Shown here in pieces: positions 16,589 through 27,531 of a DNA stretch of 46,001 nt. The notes below the pieces were generated by a model. It made no database searches, was not told the DNA's origin, and worked only from the letters and a program-made list of their open reading frames with translations. Where the stretch lies: assembly GCA_038057075.1 (NCBI GenBank), contig JBBUDV010000010.1, positions 14,417-60,417 on the forward strand, written 5' to 3'. The position numbers and the translations under genes are program-made. The DNA comes from Patescibacteria group bacterium. GTDB taxonomy: Bacteria; Patescibacteriota; Minisyncoccia; UBA6257; UBA9933. Numbering within the stretch: the stretch's first letter is position 1; every line of letters starts with the position of its first letter.

Positions 16589-17038
16589 CTAACTTTCTAT
16601 TTCAATGGTTCTTTCATGTTCTTTTTTCCCGTGTTTGAAATTTATTTGAATTTTTTGTTTCGGTAAAATTTTTGAAATTCTTTCCGGCCATTCTATTAAT
16701 ATGATGTTTTTGGGATCGGAAATTATTTCTTTGAAGCCCAATTCTGAAATTTCTTTCGCATTTCTTATCCTGTAACAATCAATATGGATTGCTTTGTTGT
16801 AGGTTGTAGTCCGTAGTTTGTAGTTTTTCTGTATCACAAAAGTCGGGGAGGTGATTTTTTTCCGCACGCCAAGTCCGCGCAAAAACCCCTGAACAAATGT
16901 GGTTTTACCCGCGCCGAGATTGCCTTTTAAAATTATTACTAAGGCGTTTTTAAATAATTTTTGTTTAATAATTTCCTGCGCCAAAAGTTTGGCGATTTTT
17001 TTGGTTTGAATTGAGGAGGTGATTTTAAATTTAATCAT
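16589..17038 (-). CDS. tsaE: tRNA t6A biosynthesis ATPase TsaE
   Basis: GNLGAGKTTF, SPTF, HIDCYR, LIEWP. Confidence 0.95.
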   Translation of the reverse strand: MIKFKITSSIQTKKIAKLLAQEIIKQKLFKNALVIILKGNLGAGKTTFVQGFLRGLGVRKKITSPTFVIQKNYKLRTTTYNKAIHIDCYRIRNAKEISELGFKEIISDPKNIILIEWPERISKILPKQKIQINFKHGKKEHERTIEIES

Positions 17039-17112
17039 GGGAAAATAATAGCAAATCTATGCTTTTTAGCAAAAGGATGCTTCGCGTATTGAAATTAATG
17101 TTGGTGCCTAAT

Positions 17113-17168
17113 ACCGAAAGTTAACCGAAAGTTATCCACAATTGGATTACTAACAGTTTTGTTATAAT
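17113..17168 (+). promoter_or_regulatory. lexA promoter: 11-bp direct repeat (candidate SOS box), DnaA box, extended -10
   Basis: ACCGAAAGTTA twice (17113-17134), TTATCCACA (17132-17140), TGT-TATAAT (17160-17168) 6 nt before the ATG. Confidence 0.6.
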
Positions 17169-17174
17169 TATTAC

Positions 17175-18623
17175 ATGCTCACAAAACGTCAAAAGCAAGT
17201 GCTGGATTTTATAATAAAATCCACGCAGAAAAAAGGTTTTGCGCCATCACAAGAAGAGATGGCAAAACATTTTCGTCTTTCTATTAGCACTATTAACCAA
17301 CACATTACATCTCTTAAAACCAAGGGTTATTTAGAGGGTGGTAAAAACAAAAAACGCGCCATTAAGGTGGTTGAAAATTCAAAAATGGTGCAAATTCCTC
17401 TATTAGGAACAATCGCAGCAGGGAAGCCGATTAGTTTATTTGAAGTACCGAGTGAAACCATTGCCATTCCAAAAAATAAAGTGCCTGCAGGTTCAGAAAT
17501 TTATGCGCTTCGCGTGATTGGAAACAGCATGATTGAAGAAAAAATAAACGATGGCGATTTGGTATTAGTAAACCAACAACAAACAGCCGAGAATGGACAA
17601 AAAGTAGTTGCACTTATAAATAATAGCGAAGCAACTTTAAAAAAATTCTACAAAGAAAGGGGTCAAATTCGTTTACAGCCGGCAAATAGAAATATGGCAC
17701 CTATTATCATAAAAAATGGGACGGATTTTGCCATCCAAGGAGTAGTTCTTGATGTAATAAAAGGATCTGGTCCAATTGTAATAAATAAAGAACAAGTTTT
17801 GCCAAGTAGAGAAATTAAAAAACAAAACAAAATCGATCCCCCGTATTTCGAAAAAAATGGATTTAAACTTTATAAAGCAAACTGTTTAGATATTTTAAAT
17901 TCACTCCCAGAAAATTCAGTTGATATGGTTTTTGCCGATCCTCCGTATAATCTTTCAAATGGCGGAATCTCAGTTCATTCCGGGCGAATGGTTAGCGTTA
18001 ATAAGGGCGACTGGGATAAAAGCAAAGGATTTAAAGATGATTACGATTTTCATTATAAATGGCTCGAGGCATGCCGGAGAGTTTTAAAACCAAATGGAAC
18101 TCTCTGGGTTAGCGGCACTTACCATTCAATTTATCAATGTGGTCACGCTTTGCAATCGCTTGGTTATCATATTTTAAATGATGTGGCGTGGTTTAAACCA
18201 AACGCATCGCCAAATTTAAGCTGCCGATTTTTTACGGCCAGCCATGAATCGCTTATTTGGGCGCGAAAAGAAAAAAAAGCAAAACACATGTTTAACTATT
18301 CCTTGATGAAAAATGGAAATTGGCCAGAAGATGTTTTAAAAAAACCAGGCCTTCAAATGCGATCTGTTTGGTCAATGGGGACTCCGAAACCAATAGAAAA
18401 AAAGTTCGGAAAACACCCAACTCAGAAACCCGAGGATTTACTCCGGCGAATTGTTTTGGCCAGTACAAATAAGGGTGACTTGGTTATTGACCCATTTACC
18501 GGCAGCTCAACAACAGGCATTGCGGCTTATCTTTATGGTAGAAAATTTATTGGCATTGATACCGAAAAAAAATTTTTAGATCTATCTATTAAAAGATTTG
18601 AAGATTTAGATTATAATTTGTAA
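17175..18623 (+). CDS. lexA: LexA repressor fused to a beta-class DNA adenine methyltransferase (DpnA-like)
   Basis: N-terminal part: LTKRQKQVLDFI wHTH, IAAG cleavage site, GNSM Ser, TLKK Lys. C-terminal part: DMVFADPPY, NKGDWD, PNLSCRFFT, KHPTQKP, DPFTGS. One uninterrupted 482-aa ORF. Confidence 0.92.
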   Translation: MLTKRQKQVLDFIIKSTQKKGFAPSQEEMAKHFRLSISTINQHITSLKTKGYLEGGKNKKRAIKVVENSKMVQIPLLGTIAAGKPISLFEVPSETIAIPKNKVPAGSEIYALRVIGNSMIEEKINDGDLVLVNQQQTAENGQKVVALINNSEATLKKFYKERGQIRLQPANRNMAPIIIKNGTDFAIQGVVLDVIKGSGPIVINKEQVLPSREIKKQNKIDPPYFEKNGFKLYKANCLDILNSLPENSVDMVFADPPYNLSNGGISVHSGRMVSVNKGDWDKSKGFKDDYDFHYKWLEACRRVLKPNGTLWVSGTYHSIYQCGHALQSLGYHILNDVAWFKPNASPNLSCRFFTASHESLIWARKEKKAKHMFNYSLMKNGNWPEDVLKKPGLQMRSVWSMGTPKPIEKKFGKHPTQKPEDLLRRIVLASTNKGDLVIDPFTGSSTTGIAAYLYGRKFIGIDTEKKFLDLSIKRFEDLDYNL

Positions 18624-18645
18624 ACCATAAGAAAATAATATAACT

Positions 18646-19167
18646 ATGAAAACAAAAGGTATTGGTGGAGGAAATACAATAACCGGACTTAATTTTGAAA
18701 AAAGACGAGATATTTTAGACATTCTAAAAAAAGCAAAGGATTATTCCGTAAAAAACGGCTTTATTTACTATCAAGGAAAAGAGGTAGCAAGAAGTTTTAG
18801 AAAACAAGGACTGTATAAAATGCTTTCCGAAAAAGGCATTGATTGGAGGAAATCTATATCAAAACGCCTATTTCCAGATGAGGCTATTTATGTAATCAAA
18901 AATAATACTCTTTTTATTATAGAAATGAAGTTTCAAAAAGTTGCCGGCTCGGTTGATGAAAAACTGCAAACCTGCGACTTTAAAAAGAAACAATACCACA
19001 AGCTCATGGCTCCGCTAAATATTGAGGTTAAATATATTTATATTTTAAGTGATTGGTTTAAAAACCCATCATATAAAGATACGCTTGATTATATTATTTC
19101 GGTTGGATGTCATTATTATTTCAATTATTTACCGTTGCAAAAACTTGGATTGCCAGTGCCAAAATAA
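18646..19167 (+). CDS. PD-(D/E)XK nuclease, probable restriction endonuclease
   Basis: GLNFE...FPDEA...IIEMKFQ..GSVDEK; directly downstream of the MTase. Confidence 0.8.
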   Translation: MKTKGIGGGNTITGLNFEKRRDILDILKKAKDYSVKNGFIYYQGKEVARSFRKQGLYKMLSEKGIDWRKSISKRLFPDEAIYVIKNNTLFIIEMKFQKVAGSVDEKLQTCDFKKKQYHKLMAPLNIEVKYIYILSDWFKNPSYKDTLDYIISVGCHYYFNYLPLQKLGLPVPK

Positions 19168-19256
19168 TACTTCTGTAAATTCAGGGTGGCCAACATAATC
19201 AAAAAAGAGGAGTGAAAAATACATTATTTGTAGAGTAGACAGCCCAACTTAAAGAC

Positions 19257-19763
19257 TTACTTAATATTTTCTTTTTCTAATTTACCAAAGATTACTCGAA
19301 AATAATCACGCGATTGCACGAATAGATTGAAAATCTCTGAATAAATATTTTTAACCTCCTTAACAGTTTTCCTTATTTCAGTTAAATTTTTTTGTTGAGT
19401 TATTTTGTGAACACCTAAAATTCTTATTCTATTTAGCTTAGTGCAATTAACATATAATTTTTGTTTCTGTGGAAAATTAACACAAGCTGCTAAATCTTGC
19501 AACAACTGTCCAAACATTTTTTCATCATGCTTCTTGAAATTGATTTGAAAAGGATAAACGCGACATTCAATTAAAAACTCGGAATTCCGAATTAACATTC
19601 GTACGATTTCTTCAACTAATTGTTGATATATTAATAGAGCCGCTAAATATCCTTCTGTTGTCTTTTTTTTGTATGACCGTGCTGCTACCTTATCTAAAAC
19701 ATCCAAAAAGCTTGCATTTTTAAAACTTGGCCAATTACTACGTTCTAAAATTTTATTAGACAT
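19257..19763 (-). CDS. Hypothetical helical protein
   Basis: 168-aa AT-rich ORF with no confident motif (weak HEPN-like R...H: RILGVH). Confidence 0.65.
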   Translation of the reverse strand: MSNKILERSNWPSFKNASFLDVLDKVAARSYKKKTTEGYLAALLIYQQLVEEIVRMLIRNSEFLIECRVYPFQINFKKHDEKMFGQLLQDLAACVNFPQKQKLYVNCTKLNRIRILGVHKITQQKNLTEIRKTVKEVKNIYSEIFNLFVQSRDYFRVIFGKLEKENIK

Positions 19764-19812: not shown

Positions 19813-20424
19813 CTAATTACTAACAGCTTTTGACTTTTTCGTTAATTTCTTCCTTCTCCTCTTGGGTCTATTTTCCATAATAAGCCTTTTCACTTCGTCT
19901 TGATTTGGTAAGACACTGACTATTTCTTCACCAAGTATACTAAGCTGGTGAGTTGCGGGTGAGATACCCCGTGTCAAAAATTTATGACGATTTTGAGCTT
20001 TGGCAATGACATCTGCTATATTTCCTATTTTAGGTTGTCTTGCTTGAACAGTATTTATTTTATCAATTTCTGAATTTTTAAATTCATCCTTACCTTCTTT
20101 AAACTTCAAATAAAAAGCAATGACCGCGATACGTTGATAAAGATCTGTGGGTTTTTTTCTGCTCACAAATTTATCCATTGTATCATTAATCGTTGTGTCA
20201 CTTCCTACGCTAGGTAAATTTGATTCAATTAAACCAGAATTGTCTATATTTATCATAGAACCATCAAGCTTTAATTGTTTTAAAACAAAAGAAAGAATAT
20301 CTAAACGATCGTCTTCTTTGAGCCCCTCAAGTTCCTCTGTAATAATCTTAATTGCTTTAAGCTTTGATTCAAGATTTGATTCGCTACTATTTTTTATTTT
20401 TACCATATGTATATTTAACTTCAT
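19813..20424 (-). CDS. Hypothetical protein, possible C-terminal wHTH with basic tail
   Basis: 203-aa ORF; IAVIAFYL..HQLSILGE pattern; RPKRRRKK tail. Confidence 0.65.
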   Translation of the reverse strand: MKLNIHMVKIKNSSESNLESKLKAIKIITEELEGLKEDDRLDILSFVLKQLKLDGSMINIDNSGLIESNLPSVGSDTTINDTMDKFVSRKKPTDLYQRIAVIAFYLKFKEGKDEFKNSEIDKINTVQARQPKIGNIADVIAKAQNRHKFLTRGISPATHQLSILGEEIVSVLPNQDEVKRLIMENRPKRRRKKLTKKSKAVSN

Positions 20425-26277: not shown

Positions 26278-27531
26278 TCAGCGCGCAAAAGAATTTATTG
26301 ATTTCAGAGGAAGAGAGATTTCAAACTTAGTCACAAAACGAGATTTGTTATTATTTTCTCCAGTGTCGGCGCTTCGCGCTTCTATGTGGCCGCCGTGCGA
26401 CGTCATTACCGCGTAAACATTCGCCAATCCTAAGCCAGTGCCGTTGTATTTGGTGGTGAAAAACGGGGAAAAAATGTCTTTTAAGTCGTCTGGTTTTATT
26501 TTTTCTCCATTATTTGAAATTATAACTTGAAACAAATTCCGTTCCGGATAAAACTCTGTTTTTACCAAAATTTTTGACGCCTTGGCTTCAACCGCGTTTT
26601 TGATTATATCTTGGACAGACGCGCCGAAGTATCTTTTATCAAGATAAACAACGGCTTTATCAAGATGTTTTTCAAGCTCAAATGAAAATTCAATGTTTTT
26701 TTCTTTCATATTAAGCATTCCGATTGTTTCTTTCAAAAATCTATTGATGTTGTTTTTCTCGAGAACAATGCAATTTGGAATTCTACAAAATGTCATTATC
26801 TCGCTGATGAACTTTTCAAGTTCTAACGACTCTTTGAAAATTATTTTTATTTTCTCTTTGATTTTCTGACGATTGTTTTGATCGGGGATTATATTGAGGT
26901 CTTTGTCTATTTTTTCAAATATGTTTTGAGTAAAACCCCCAATTATTCCCAGTTTATTGCGGAATGTATGCGAAATCCCGGCAGTATGCTTTCCTAAGAC
27001 CGACATATTTTCCATATCTTTAATCCTTCCCAGTGTCTCCTCGTACTTAACCCGTCTCTCAAATTCCTTTCCTATAACCATGGCGCAAAATTTGGTGAGT
27101 TCCTTGATTTTTTTAAAGCAAAGATCGCCGTGTTTTTCAATCGTGTCAATAATCAAAATCCCAATATTAATGTCTTTGTAATACAGCGGCGCGTACAAAA
27201 TTGAATTTATTTTATAAACATCAATCAATCCTTTCATGTACGCGACGCGCAGGTCTTGGGCGGGATGAACGATTATCATCATTTTCTTATTGTTCATCAC
27301 CTGTTCCAAAAATCCTTTACCATACTCATAGGTAATTTCCGTTCCGATGCTGTGGCCTGTTTTGGGAACGCCGGCTCTGATGTAAAAATTTTCTTTTTCT
27401 CTGGCGATAAAACAAACCCGTTCGCATCCGGAAACTCCGGCAGCCAACTCCGCGGCAACATTCATCATCTCGCAAATATCATCGCTTAAAATCAACCTAA
27501 TCAATGCCTCAAAATCCAAATCATTTCCCAT
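26278..27531 (-). CDS. Cytoplasmic GAF-domain sensor histidine kinase
   Basis: GAF-like (SILYAPL..IGIL), H-box ISHTFRNKL, N-box IIKNAVEA, FFTTK..GTGLGL; SD AAGGAG before the ATG at 27531. Confidence 0.88.
   Translation of the reverse strand: MGNDLDFEALIRLILSDDICEMMNVAAELAAGVSGCERVCFIAREKENFYIRAGVPKTGHSIGTEITYEYGKGFLEQVMNNKKMMIIVHPAQDLRVAYMKGLIDVYKINSILYAPLYYKDINIGILIIDTIEKHGDLCFKKIKELTKFCAMVIGKEFERRVKYEETLGRIKDMENMSVLGKHTAGISHTFRNKLGIIGGFTQNIFEKIDKDLNIIPDQNNRQKIKEKIKIIFKESLELEKFISEIMTFCRIPNCIVLEKNNINRFLKETIGMLNMKEKNIEFSFELEKHLDKAVVYLDKRYFGASVQDIIKNAVEAKASKILVKTEFYPERNLFQVIISNNGEKIKPDDLKDIFSPFFTTKYNGTGLGLANVYAVMTSHGGHIEARSADTGENNNKSRFVTKFEISLPLKSINSFAR

Follow-up and report, generated by a model that had tools for sequence, protein, structure and literature searches.

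A complete LexA-type repressor fused to a DpnA-like DNA methyltransferase, a candidate built-in controller of a restriction-modification module in Patescibacteria

The window analysed here, i.e., the whole stretch of 46,001 nucleotides taken from contig JBBUDV010000010.1 of a Patescibacteria group bacterium, carries a gene in which a complete LexA-type repressor is continuous with a DpnA-like DNA methyltransferase (MTase), and which is followed by the gene of a small nuclease (Table 1, all positions being those of the window). An initial annotation, made from the sequence alone, had read the first of these genes as one open reading frame (ORF) that joins LexA to a complete beta-class MTase, and profile and structure comparisons have confirmed this. 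The fusion scores 178 bits against the NCBIfam lexA equivalog TIGR00498 at a cut-off of 110.95, and its closest LexA structure is that of the Thermotoga protein (3k2z, residues 2-180, E 4.7e-34). The MTase part matches PF01555 N6_N4_Mtase over residues 249-472 with 191.5 bits (cut-off 26.7) and finds its closest solved structure in CcrM (6pbd, residues 234-471, E 1.5e-58). Its motifs follow the order of the beta class, with D255-P-P-Y258 ahead of the S-adenosylmethionine (SAM)-binding F441-T-G-S-S of the FxGxG type, both of which are invariant or nearly so in an alignment of 46 sequences. An AlphaFold2 (AF2) model computed from these 46 sequences predicts three folded parts and a predicted local distance difference test (pLDDT) value below 50 at residues 198-218, which fits the linker of about 25 residues that had been proposed between the well-folded domains. 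The recognition helix of the LexA part reads STINQHITSL.

Table 1. Positions of the genes, domains, residues and upstream elements of the fusion locus within the window.
Feature	Position	Strand	Remarks
Candidate direct-repeat operator	17114..17130	-	TTTCGG-ttaac-TTTCGG, 11-bp period; plus strand CCGAAA-gttaa-CCGAAA
DnaA-box-like element	17131..17140	-	Minus strand reads TGTGGATAAC, the complement of TTATCCACA; plus strand reads GTTATCCACA; abuts the operator
Putative extended -10-like element TGTTATAAT	17160..17168	+	Read from the sequence; not listed by the consensus promoter scan
LexA-MTase fusion gene	17175..18623	+	482 aa, uninterrupted frame
LexA winged helix-turn-helix (wHTH) domain	17178..17360	+	Residues 2-62; Pfam PF01726 LexA_DNA_bind, 54 bits (cut-off 23.7)
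S24 autoprotease/dimerisation domain	17397..17747	+	Residues 75-191; PF00717 Peptidase_S24, 102.5 bits
Ala82-Gly83	17418-17423	+	Predicted cleavage site, in IAAG
Ser118	17526-17528	+	In GNSM
Lys156	17640-17642	+	In TLKK
Disordered linker, ~25 aa	17766..17840	+	Residues about 198-222; poorly conserved
DpnA-like beta-class N6-adenine MTase domain	17844..18620	+	Residues 224-482
DPPY motif	17937-17948	+	D255-P-P-Y258
PD-(D/E)xK nuclease gene, presumed restriction partner	18646..19167	+	173 aa; starts 22 nt past the fusion stop
Nuclease D78	18877-18879	+	Catalytic motif
Nuclease E93	18922-18924	+	Catalytic motif
Nuclease K95	18928-18930	+	Catalytic motif

The fusion is real and complete, and no misassembly is involved. 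In a search of 5.8 billion proteins, the best 120 matches have been listed and aligned with the query (121 sequences); they come from many assemblies with labels such as Parcubacteria and Woesebacteria, and they share 62-100% identity with the fusion at 87-100% coverage. All three Pfam domains stand in a single ORF in 119 of these 120, and the remaining protein (422 aa) holds S24 and MTase only. That separate lexA and MTase genes have been misread as one, be it through assembly or through frame, is of negligible probability: the frame is open without a stop, the same single ORF recurs in the 120 listed relatives from many independent assemblies, contigs from X1 and X5 (runs of two studies, which may be the window's own source) show neither differences nor gaps over 17000-19300, and a contig of X9, from a third study, matches exactly over 17404-17782. 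Across the junction, for which the initial annotation had asked for read support, these contigs show no sign of a frameshift or stop. One further X5 contig joins 17558 to 17736 and thereby skips 177 nt, an in-frame loss of 59 codons within S24. Its flank measures merely 27 nt at a likeness threshold of 90%, the other runs do not show it, and a relative or a repeat artefact is its probable source.

The residues expected for self-cleavage are highly conserved. Ala82-Gly83, Ser118, Lys156, the DPPY motif and the SAM-binding motif are at least 98% conserved in the 121 aligned fused proteins, and the first three are invariant in the alignment of 46 sequences, so that the earlier reading of IAAG, GNSM and TLKK as an Ala-Gly cleavage site with a Ser/Lys dyad is upheld. 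Mean column conservation over the 121 sequences is lowest in the linker (0.43) and amounts to 0.79 in S24 and 0.87 in the MTase. The strict conservation of the cleavage machinery indicates that cleavage matters, and the controller is probably cleavable upon contact with activated RecA. One may alternatively picture a static module, in which the LexA part serves for operator binding and dimerisation only and RecA-stimulated cleavage is physiologically irrelevant. Such a role would agree with the dimeric action of class beta MTases (PMC7544214), with the dimerisation of the LexA C-terminal domain, and with SsoII-type control, which needs no cleavage (PMC3874152). However, the near-complete retention of Ala-Gly, Ser and Lys among sequences down to 62% identity would be difficult to account for if cleavage were not selected, and MTases of the D12 and C5 types, which are usually monomers, are also found fused. 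We regard the static module as quite unlikely.

By its sequence, the MTase is DpnA-like. The best plasmid matches are an enzyme of Lactococcus lactis pSRQ700 (51.4% identity, E 1e-95, 253 residues) and staphylococcal plasmid enzymes (49.8%), and CcrM-type genes of Sinorhizobium, with 46% identity, rank behind the DpnA-type enzymes. The pSRQ700 MTase is the second (beta) MTase of its system, flanked by a D12 MTase on one side and a DpnII-family nuclease on the other. In the plasmid systems scanned, the nucleases belong to PF04556 (DpnII family) and the first MTases to PF02086 (D12), and this three-gene order corresponds to the DpnM-DpnA-DpnII layout. The DpnA-like motifs named in the initial annotation are visible in the alignment, the comparison being with the lactococcal enzyme at the DpnA position and not with pneumococcal DpnA itself. 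An orthologue of CcrM has been considered and rejected: the NCBIfam CcrM model gives 248 bits at a cut-off of 830 and is matched at positions 6-249 of 350 only, its C-terminal third remaining unmatched. The absence of a separate Dam/DpnM-type MTase, earlier noticed for the locus, extends to the whole genome assembly of the organism (582 kb, 92% complete), in which no D12/Dam-type MTase has been detected and the fusion is the sole N6_N4 MTase.

The neighbouring gene encodes a PD-(D/E)XK nuclease, as had been suggested for the ORF that begins 22 nt downstream: the signature P77-D78...E93-x-K95 is invariant across 21 homologues. Pfam yields a sub-threshold PDDEXK_11 alone (E 2.5e-4, 21.2 bits at a cut-off of 23.7). 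An AF2 model with pLDDT 83.8 gives weak Foldseek matches, the best being BstEII (E 3.6e-3), and the better-ranked ones are mostly PD-(D/E)XK nucleases; against the PDB, Foldseek returns nothing at E <= 1e-3. The nuclease has 6580 database relatives, and wherever one of the 120 listed bears a name, it is 'hypothetical protein'.

Gene neighbourhoods have been compared in 80 related loci, each taken from a GTDB species genome and each with a gene for a close relative of the window MTase. The MTase is fused to LexA in 14 of them. The 173-aa nuclease gene adjoins the MTase in 22, and a gene of ~210 aa lies directly downstream of the DpnA-like MTase in 32, fused and unfused alike; the single copy of the latter that was scanned (L004, 6491-7108, plus strand) belongs to the MutH family with 36.5 bits in Pfam at a cut-off of 23. 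The MutH-family protein may act as a small restriction enzyme for GATC, or as a nickase. One locus, L017, had been taken for a decayed fusion, a view that has been dropped, as tblastn with the LexA part found nothing there; it is counted as unfused. Beside other LexA-MTase fusions, partner genes match RE_AlwI (274 bits), RE_NgoFVII_C, RE_BsaWI and, at two loci, Endonuclease_7/His-Me finger, and three tested neighbours belong to no family. These restriction-enzyme neighbours argue that the fusions are restriction-modification (R-M) systems and not solitary housekeeping MTases. Of the R-M operon envisaged in the initial annotation, the core holds, in that the pair looks like a type II module whose relatives carry either this nuclease or one of the MutH family; the LexA part is not a fixed component of it (see below). 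A role in methyl-directed mismatch repair has been rejected for the window, since neither MutS_V nor MutL (DNA_mis_repair) domains have been detected in the 92%-complete genome and the nuclease here is of the 173-aa type and not MutH-like.

GATC is the likely target, as judged from the related loci, because a MutH-family gene replaces the 173-aa nuclease in 32 of the 80. MutH and Sau3AI both act at GATC, and we take the pSRQ700 system to be GATC-specific as well. In the own genome GATC is depleted, with 390 observed against 1596 expected sites and thus an observed-to-expected ratio (O/E) of 0.24, and GANTC is not (O/E 0.90); TCGA and AGNCT are depleted equally with GATC (each O/E 0.24). CTAG reaches an O/E of 0.41, and AGNCT is unusual as an avoided word. 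Taken together, the avoidance of GATC, TCGA, AGNCT and CTAG points to several restriction pressures, be they past or present. Site avoidance has been tried as an indicator of specificity and set aside, the pooled and per-locus values of the 80 related loci failing to separate those with from those without a nuclease.

A few further observations concern the surroundings of these modules. A conserved ORF of ~195 aa, starting with MPQSSL.YN..YYDG, follows the MTase-nuclease pair in convergent orientation at 12 of the 80 loci (e.g., L005 7447-8019 and L012 2649-3224, both on the minus strand), occurs with either nuclease type, belongs to no Pfam family, and is absent from the genome of the window. 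At L023 and L024 the regulator appears split off: an unfused DpnA-like MTase is immediately preceded by a separate and more distant S24 gene, which scores 44-51 bits against the LexA part, and at L024 the 173-aa nuclease follows the MTase, so that regulator, MTase and nuclease are separate genes. In the window, two convergent ORFs of 168 and 203 aa (19257-19763 and 19813-20424, both on the minus strand) stand behind the nuclease and before rpsI/rplM. They match no family, apart from a very weak RE_MamI hint for one of them (E 0.047), and may belong to the same inserted island. Within the 3' end of the fusion, a promoter-like TTAAAA-17 nt-TATAAT (18589-18617, plus strand) agrees with 10 of 12 consensus positions in a scan that overall does not exceed shuffled controls; by this element, the nuclease may have its own promoter as well.

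Upstream of the fusion gene, the plus strand presents in order the candidate operator, GTTATCCACA, 22 nt, the TATAAT at 17163-17168 with TGT before it, 6 nt, and the ATG. The short distance from the -10-like box to the start codon suggests a leaderless or near-leaderless start. An identical geometry (box, 22 nt, TATAAT, 6 nt, ATG) is found at L012, where the repeat is inverted too, and at both loci the repeat lies ~33 nt or more upstream of the -10 box. The usual layout upstream of fused genes is TGTGGATAAC, then a direct repeat of 11-bp period, then TATAAT, the repeat abutting the -10 box in most fused loci; L109, from a genome of the same class as the window genome, carries a near-identical element in this usual orientation. 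Canonical Patescibacteria lexA genes are preceded by TTGACA, TTCGG-N6-TTCGG and a -10 box, and from this position between -35 and -10 the direct repeat is likely the LexA box of the phylum. The TGTGGATAAC element occurs within 170 nt upstream of 19 of the 24 fused LexA genes as against 0 of 23 canonical lexA genes, and the 582-kb own genome holds nine, mostly intergenic copies where ~1.4 would be expected (an estimate from base composition). Boxes of the Gram-positive type GAAC-N4-GTTC amount to eight both-strand hits (four palindromic sites) genome-wide, none of them near the locus.

The half-sites of the repeat vary together with the recognition helix of the repressor that would bind them. 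Among 35 fused loci compared, the helix S-T-x-H-(Q/E)-H is present in 19, of which 15 have TTCGG twice, two have TTCGG with TTCGn, two have no repeat found, and none has TTCTA. Helices with F/Y (13 loci) go with TTCTA twice in 11 cases, with TTCTA and TTCGA in one, and with both types in one, and the three helices with H go with TTCTA (two) or TTCGA (one). Half-site and helix agree in every one of the 32 loci in which both are scorable. This co-variation constitutes good indirect evidence for binding of the repeat by the wHTH and, hence, for control of their own promoters by the MTases, and on these grounds it is plausible that the fusion autoregulates its module. The SOS-autoregulated operon of the initial annotation is made plausible, as far as autoregulation goes, by a candidate operator that co-varies with the helix; it is weakened by the inverted position of the window operator off the core promoter and by a recA gene at which no such operator is seen. 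As an observation of its own, genome G350, of the same class as the window genome, encodes two different fusions, L109 and L127 of 505 and 620 aa, with helices of the Q and Y type and repeats of TTTCGG and TTCTA, respectively, which fits orthogonal pairs of controller and operator.

No protein of the own assembly other than the fusion exceeds the cut-off of the lexA equivalog, and the proposed check for another lexA has thus found none above this cut-off at 92% completeness. A second S24-HTH (helix-turn-helix) protein, encoded on contig C2 (locus L002, 1276-1908; 210 aa), stays below it with 91.6 bits to the lexA model. Directly downstream lies a Dcm-type C5 MTase of 381 aa (L002, 1935-3080), and the promoter has the same layout of TGTGGATAAC, repeat and TATAAT with a different repeat (TTTTGCATATC / TTTGACATATC); this pair appears to be an unfused counterpart of the fusion. 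The third S24/S26 match of the genome is a signal peptidase. The recA gene is present, and the 16-bp gap upstream of it contains no repeat. Only two good operator copies have been found genome-wide, the second on contig C6 at ~26620-26665 (locus L116) with GATAAC TTTCGG ttaat TTTCGG TATTGA..TATAAT. It precedes a 126-aa ORF with a hydrophobic C-terminus and no Pfam family, and Fic/DOC and HTH_17 genes are nearby.

The distribution of LexA across the phylum has been surveyed in an even sample of 401 Patescibacteria genomes. The overall totals of this survey (337, 275 and 171 of 401) include the unpublished genome G154, and the specific claims are made without it; the long-frame set comprises LexA matches in open frames of at least 447 aa, frames of ~260-345 aa lying outside it, and counts from it are taken from the matches listed and are lower bounds. 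LexA exceeds the cut-off in 275 of the 401 genomes. Among the matches listed, 24 are long-frame; one of them, in G282, has been discarded as a frame artefact, and each of the remaining 23, spread over 22 genomes, is LexA joined to a DNA MTase according to Pfam, none of them having a partner domain other than an MTase. These at least 23 fusions comprise 14 N6_N4_Mtase, four MethyltransfD12 and five C5 DNA_methylase enzymes, so that the swapping of the C-terminal module, proposed as something to look for, is indeed observed: the same LexA lineage occurs on N6_N4, D12 and C5 MTases. In a maximum-likelihood tree of 49 LexA domains, 23 of the 24 fused domains and the unfused L050 form one clade (support of 98 in the Shimodaira-Hasegawa-like approximate likelihood ratio test, SH-aLRT), the fused domain outside it being the long-branched L018. 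The clade stands apart from the other 22 canonical lexA, three of which are its sister group. The MTase types are mixed inside it, a DpnA-type fusion being, e.g., sister to a different N6_N4 fusion with a support of 97. Judged from this tree, the LexA part is a separate, MTase-associated LexA lineage and not an orthologue of the canonical lexA of the phylum.

These data bear on the view that the fusion is the organism's housekeeping SOS repressor, on which the MTase rides as a passenger and gains just SOS-linked expression. It would agree with the lack of any other own-genome protein above the lexA cut-off, with the genomes G044 and G111, in which the long-frame LexA is the only LexA match listed, and with an operator of the TTCGG-repeat type that is common to canonical lexA genes. 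The separate clade of the fused domains speaks against it, as does the canonical lexA of normal length that is kept beside the fusion in at least six of the 22 other fusion genomes (G352, G171, G153, G325, G292 and G176). Further points against it are the operator-free recA and the mere two good operator copies of the own genome, the lack of any LexA match in 8 of the 19 same-class genomes listed, and a pairing with MTases alone (at least 23 of 23), which would be unexpected from an accidental fusion. That the LexA part is the cell's ordinary SOS repressor, as had been implied, is not supported by the separate clade and the coexisting canonical lexA, and we judge the passenger view to be improbable.

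On balance we consider it more likely than not that the locus is a two-gene type II R-M module whose MTase carries an N-terminal, complete LexA-type repressor as a built-in controller. The wHTH would bind the direct repeat, and the MTase would thereby repress its own module. SsoII-type MTases act in this way through their N-terminal HTH, and C proteins do likewise in further R-M systems. Filaments of RecA on single-stranded DNA (ssDNA), arising from DNA damage, from breaks by self-restriction or from incoming ssDNA, would stimulate self-cleavage at Ala82-Gly83. Cleavage would remove the DNA-binding domain, derepress the module and leave a free, S24-dimerised MTase, and the outcome would be a burst of methylation, perhaps also of restriction, whenever ssDNA or breaks appear. 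For the cell, cleavage could mean more methylation in repair or DNA uptake, or it could mean that protection is lost and death follows.

The LexA part might also, as the initial annotation had suggested, act by targeting, i.e., dock an ssDNA-active DpnA-like MTase on RecA-coated ssDNA such as transforming DNA or recombination intermediates, which would be methylated before restriction, regulation being secondary. Pneumococcal DpnA methylates ssDNA and protects transforming DNA. The window MTase is most similar to the enzyme at the DpnA position of DpnII-type systems, no Dam-type partner has been found in the 92%-complete assembly, the S24 domain, which is the part that interacts with activated RecA, is conserved in its entirety, and recA is present; furthermore, ssDNA is a substrate of class beta MTases such as CcrM (PMC7544214). 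The same LexA lineage is, however, attached to MTases of the C5 and D12 types, for which activity on ssDNA is not known; the conserved wHTH and its co-varying operator indicate that sequence-specific binding has been selected; and docking leads to cleavage between wHTH and S24, which would not keep the enzyme on the filament. Targeting, which is compatible with the built-in controller, appears unlikely as the principal function.

The second outcome of cleavage corresponds to a further alternative, in which damage triggers a loss of protection: the cleaved S24-MTase would be degraded, methylation would lapse, and the stable nuclease would kill the cell, as in an abortive-infection or addiction switch. 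Both cleavage fragments of E. coli LexA are degraded by ClpXP and Lon. The strictly conserved cleavage machinery would fit such a switch, and R-M systems behave like addiction modules of the toxin-antitoxin kind (PMC3874152). Against it, many fused genes have no adjacent nuclease gene within the retrieved loci (e.g., L014), and cleavage would also derepress the synthesis of fresh full-length MTase. We consider a killing switch very unlikely.

The reading of the fusion as the cleavable controller of its own R-M module has in turn to be weighed against a number of observations that do not favour it. The repeat and box of the window and of L012 are inverted and lie 35-61 nt upstream of the ATG, off the core promoter, and this inverted upstream position makes self-repression less clear in the window than in its relatives; the element, standing on the minus strand, points to the divergent tsaE (16589-17038), and from its orientation the operator could act on tsaE instead. 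Agreement of helix and half-site is also less independent than the number of loci implies, as a tree computed without the wHTH columns places three independent switches on well-supported branches, all of them in agreement, for which the sign test gives p 0.25 and is under-powered. In the MTase tree, fused and unfused enzymes interleave, with at least five changes forced by well-supported branches; together with the mixed MTase types of the fused clade, this indicates that the LexA module and the MTases have recombined repeatedly. The MTase is unfused in 65 of the 80 related loci, some of them with the same nucleases, and also, among the matches listed, in all 24 other genomes of the 401-genome sample that have a close DpnA-like MTase. 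With most close relatives of the MTase unfused, the LexA part is optional, or dispensable, for the R-M function. For the nuclease, no characterised restriction-enzyme family lies above the cut-off in Pfam or NCBIfam, and GATC shows no consistent depletion in the related nuclease-carrying loci (O/E 0.37-1.16). Finally, if MTase and nuclease share one operon, derepression would raise the nuclease too, the benefit of which is not obvious.

Tentatively, and as a reading that is less likely than not, the built-in controller may be extended to a class of Patescibacteria R-M systems in which a LexA paralogue cleavable by activated RecA stands in or upstream of the MTase and is exchanged among N6/N4, Dam-type and C5 enzymes. 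It would act as a restriction alarm: ssDNA or breaks, be they due to damage, self-restriction or DNA uptake, would cut off the DNA-binding domain, derepress the system and release a dimeric MTase, so that methylation would not fall behind repair synthesis or incoming DNA. In genomes like that of the window, whose assembly shows no canonical lexA, mutS or mutL, the fusion may be the sole remaining circuit of the SOS type.

In the literature searched, which did not include the study of the SOS network of Patescibacteria (Sanchez-Osuna et al., 2017, as cited by PMC8565304 and PMC7739468) that may mention such proteins, no LexA-MTase fusion is described. A complete LexA as a portable controller cassette for three MTase families appears to be an undescribed combination. 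Public databases already contain the fused proteins, labelled for instance 'modification methylase'. Known ways of R-M control comprise C proteins, methylation-sensitive promoters, antisense RNA and MTases with a plain N-terminal HTH. If the proposal is true, a cleavable LexA controller adds a direct RecA/ssDNA input to restriction-modification, which bears on how self-restriction is avoided in repair and DNA uptake, and the fusions represent a natural case of LexA being reused as a portable regulatory cassette. The pairs of Q/E helix with TTCGG and F/Y helix with TTCTA constitute a testable specificity code, and the module is simple and can be expressed in E. coli, while it comes from bacteria of the candidate phyla radiation that cannot grow alone.

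Among known systems, the nearest in architecture are MTases of the SsoII/Ecl18kI/EcoRII/ScrFI type, which repress their own promoter via an N-terminal HTH (PMC3874152). Common to both are the N-terminal DNA-binding domain on the MTase, the type II module and, in most relatives, a candidate operator that overlaps the -10 box. The present fusions differ in that they contain a whole LexA, i.e., wHTH and S24 autoprotease with an intact site, and so could be cut under the influence of activated RecA; moreover, their operator is an 11-bp direct repeat, inverted and upstream in the window, and they extend over three Pfam MTase families. C proteins stand alone, belong to the Xre type and have no protease domain; they typically activate and repress the genes of the nuclease and of the C protein itself. 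They resemble the present case as HTH regulators dedicated to an R-M module, all the more in the unfused S24-HTH cases of L002 and L024, and differ from the fusion in that the controller here is part of the MTase.

To LexA (TIGR00498) and the S24 autoproteases of the cI/UmuD type, the fusion is related by a full-length lexA match above the cut-off and by the Ala-Gly site with its Ser/Lys dyad, which sit at nearly the positions known from E. coli LexA. It departs from LexA by its C-terminal MTase of 260 aa, its separate clade, the lack of an operator at recA, and its frequent occurrence beside a canonical lexA. DpnA/LlaDCHI-B (pSRQ700, NC_002798.1) shares 51% identity over 253 residues and the motifs described above. 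The DpnA/DpnII systems differ in having a Dam-type partner, which the window lacks, and in their DpnII-family nuclease, in place of which the window has the 173-aa PD-(D/E)xK enzyme and relatives have one of the MutH family; the Firmicutes systems have been seen without a LexA fusion. CcrM of Caulobacter, which acts at GANTC, has the same class beta fold and is the best solved-structure match, whereas its C-terminal part is missing here, GANTC is not depleted, and the identity of 46% stays behind the 51% to the DpnA type. In CapW/BrxR and CapH-CapP, a signal from DNA damage or ssDNA relieves the repression of defence operons, for one of them via repressor proteolysis. The regulators of these operons are separate proteins of other families, whereas in the fusion described here a LexA-type repressor resides covalently within the MTase.

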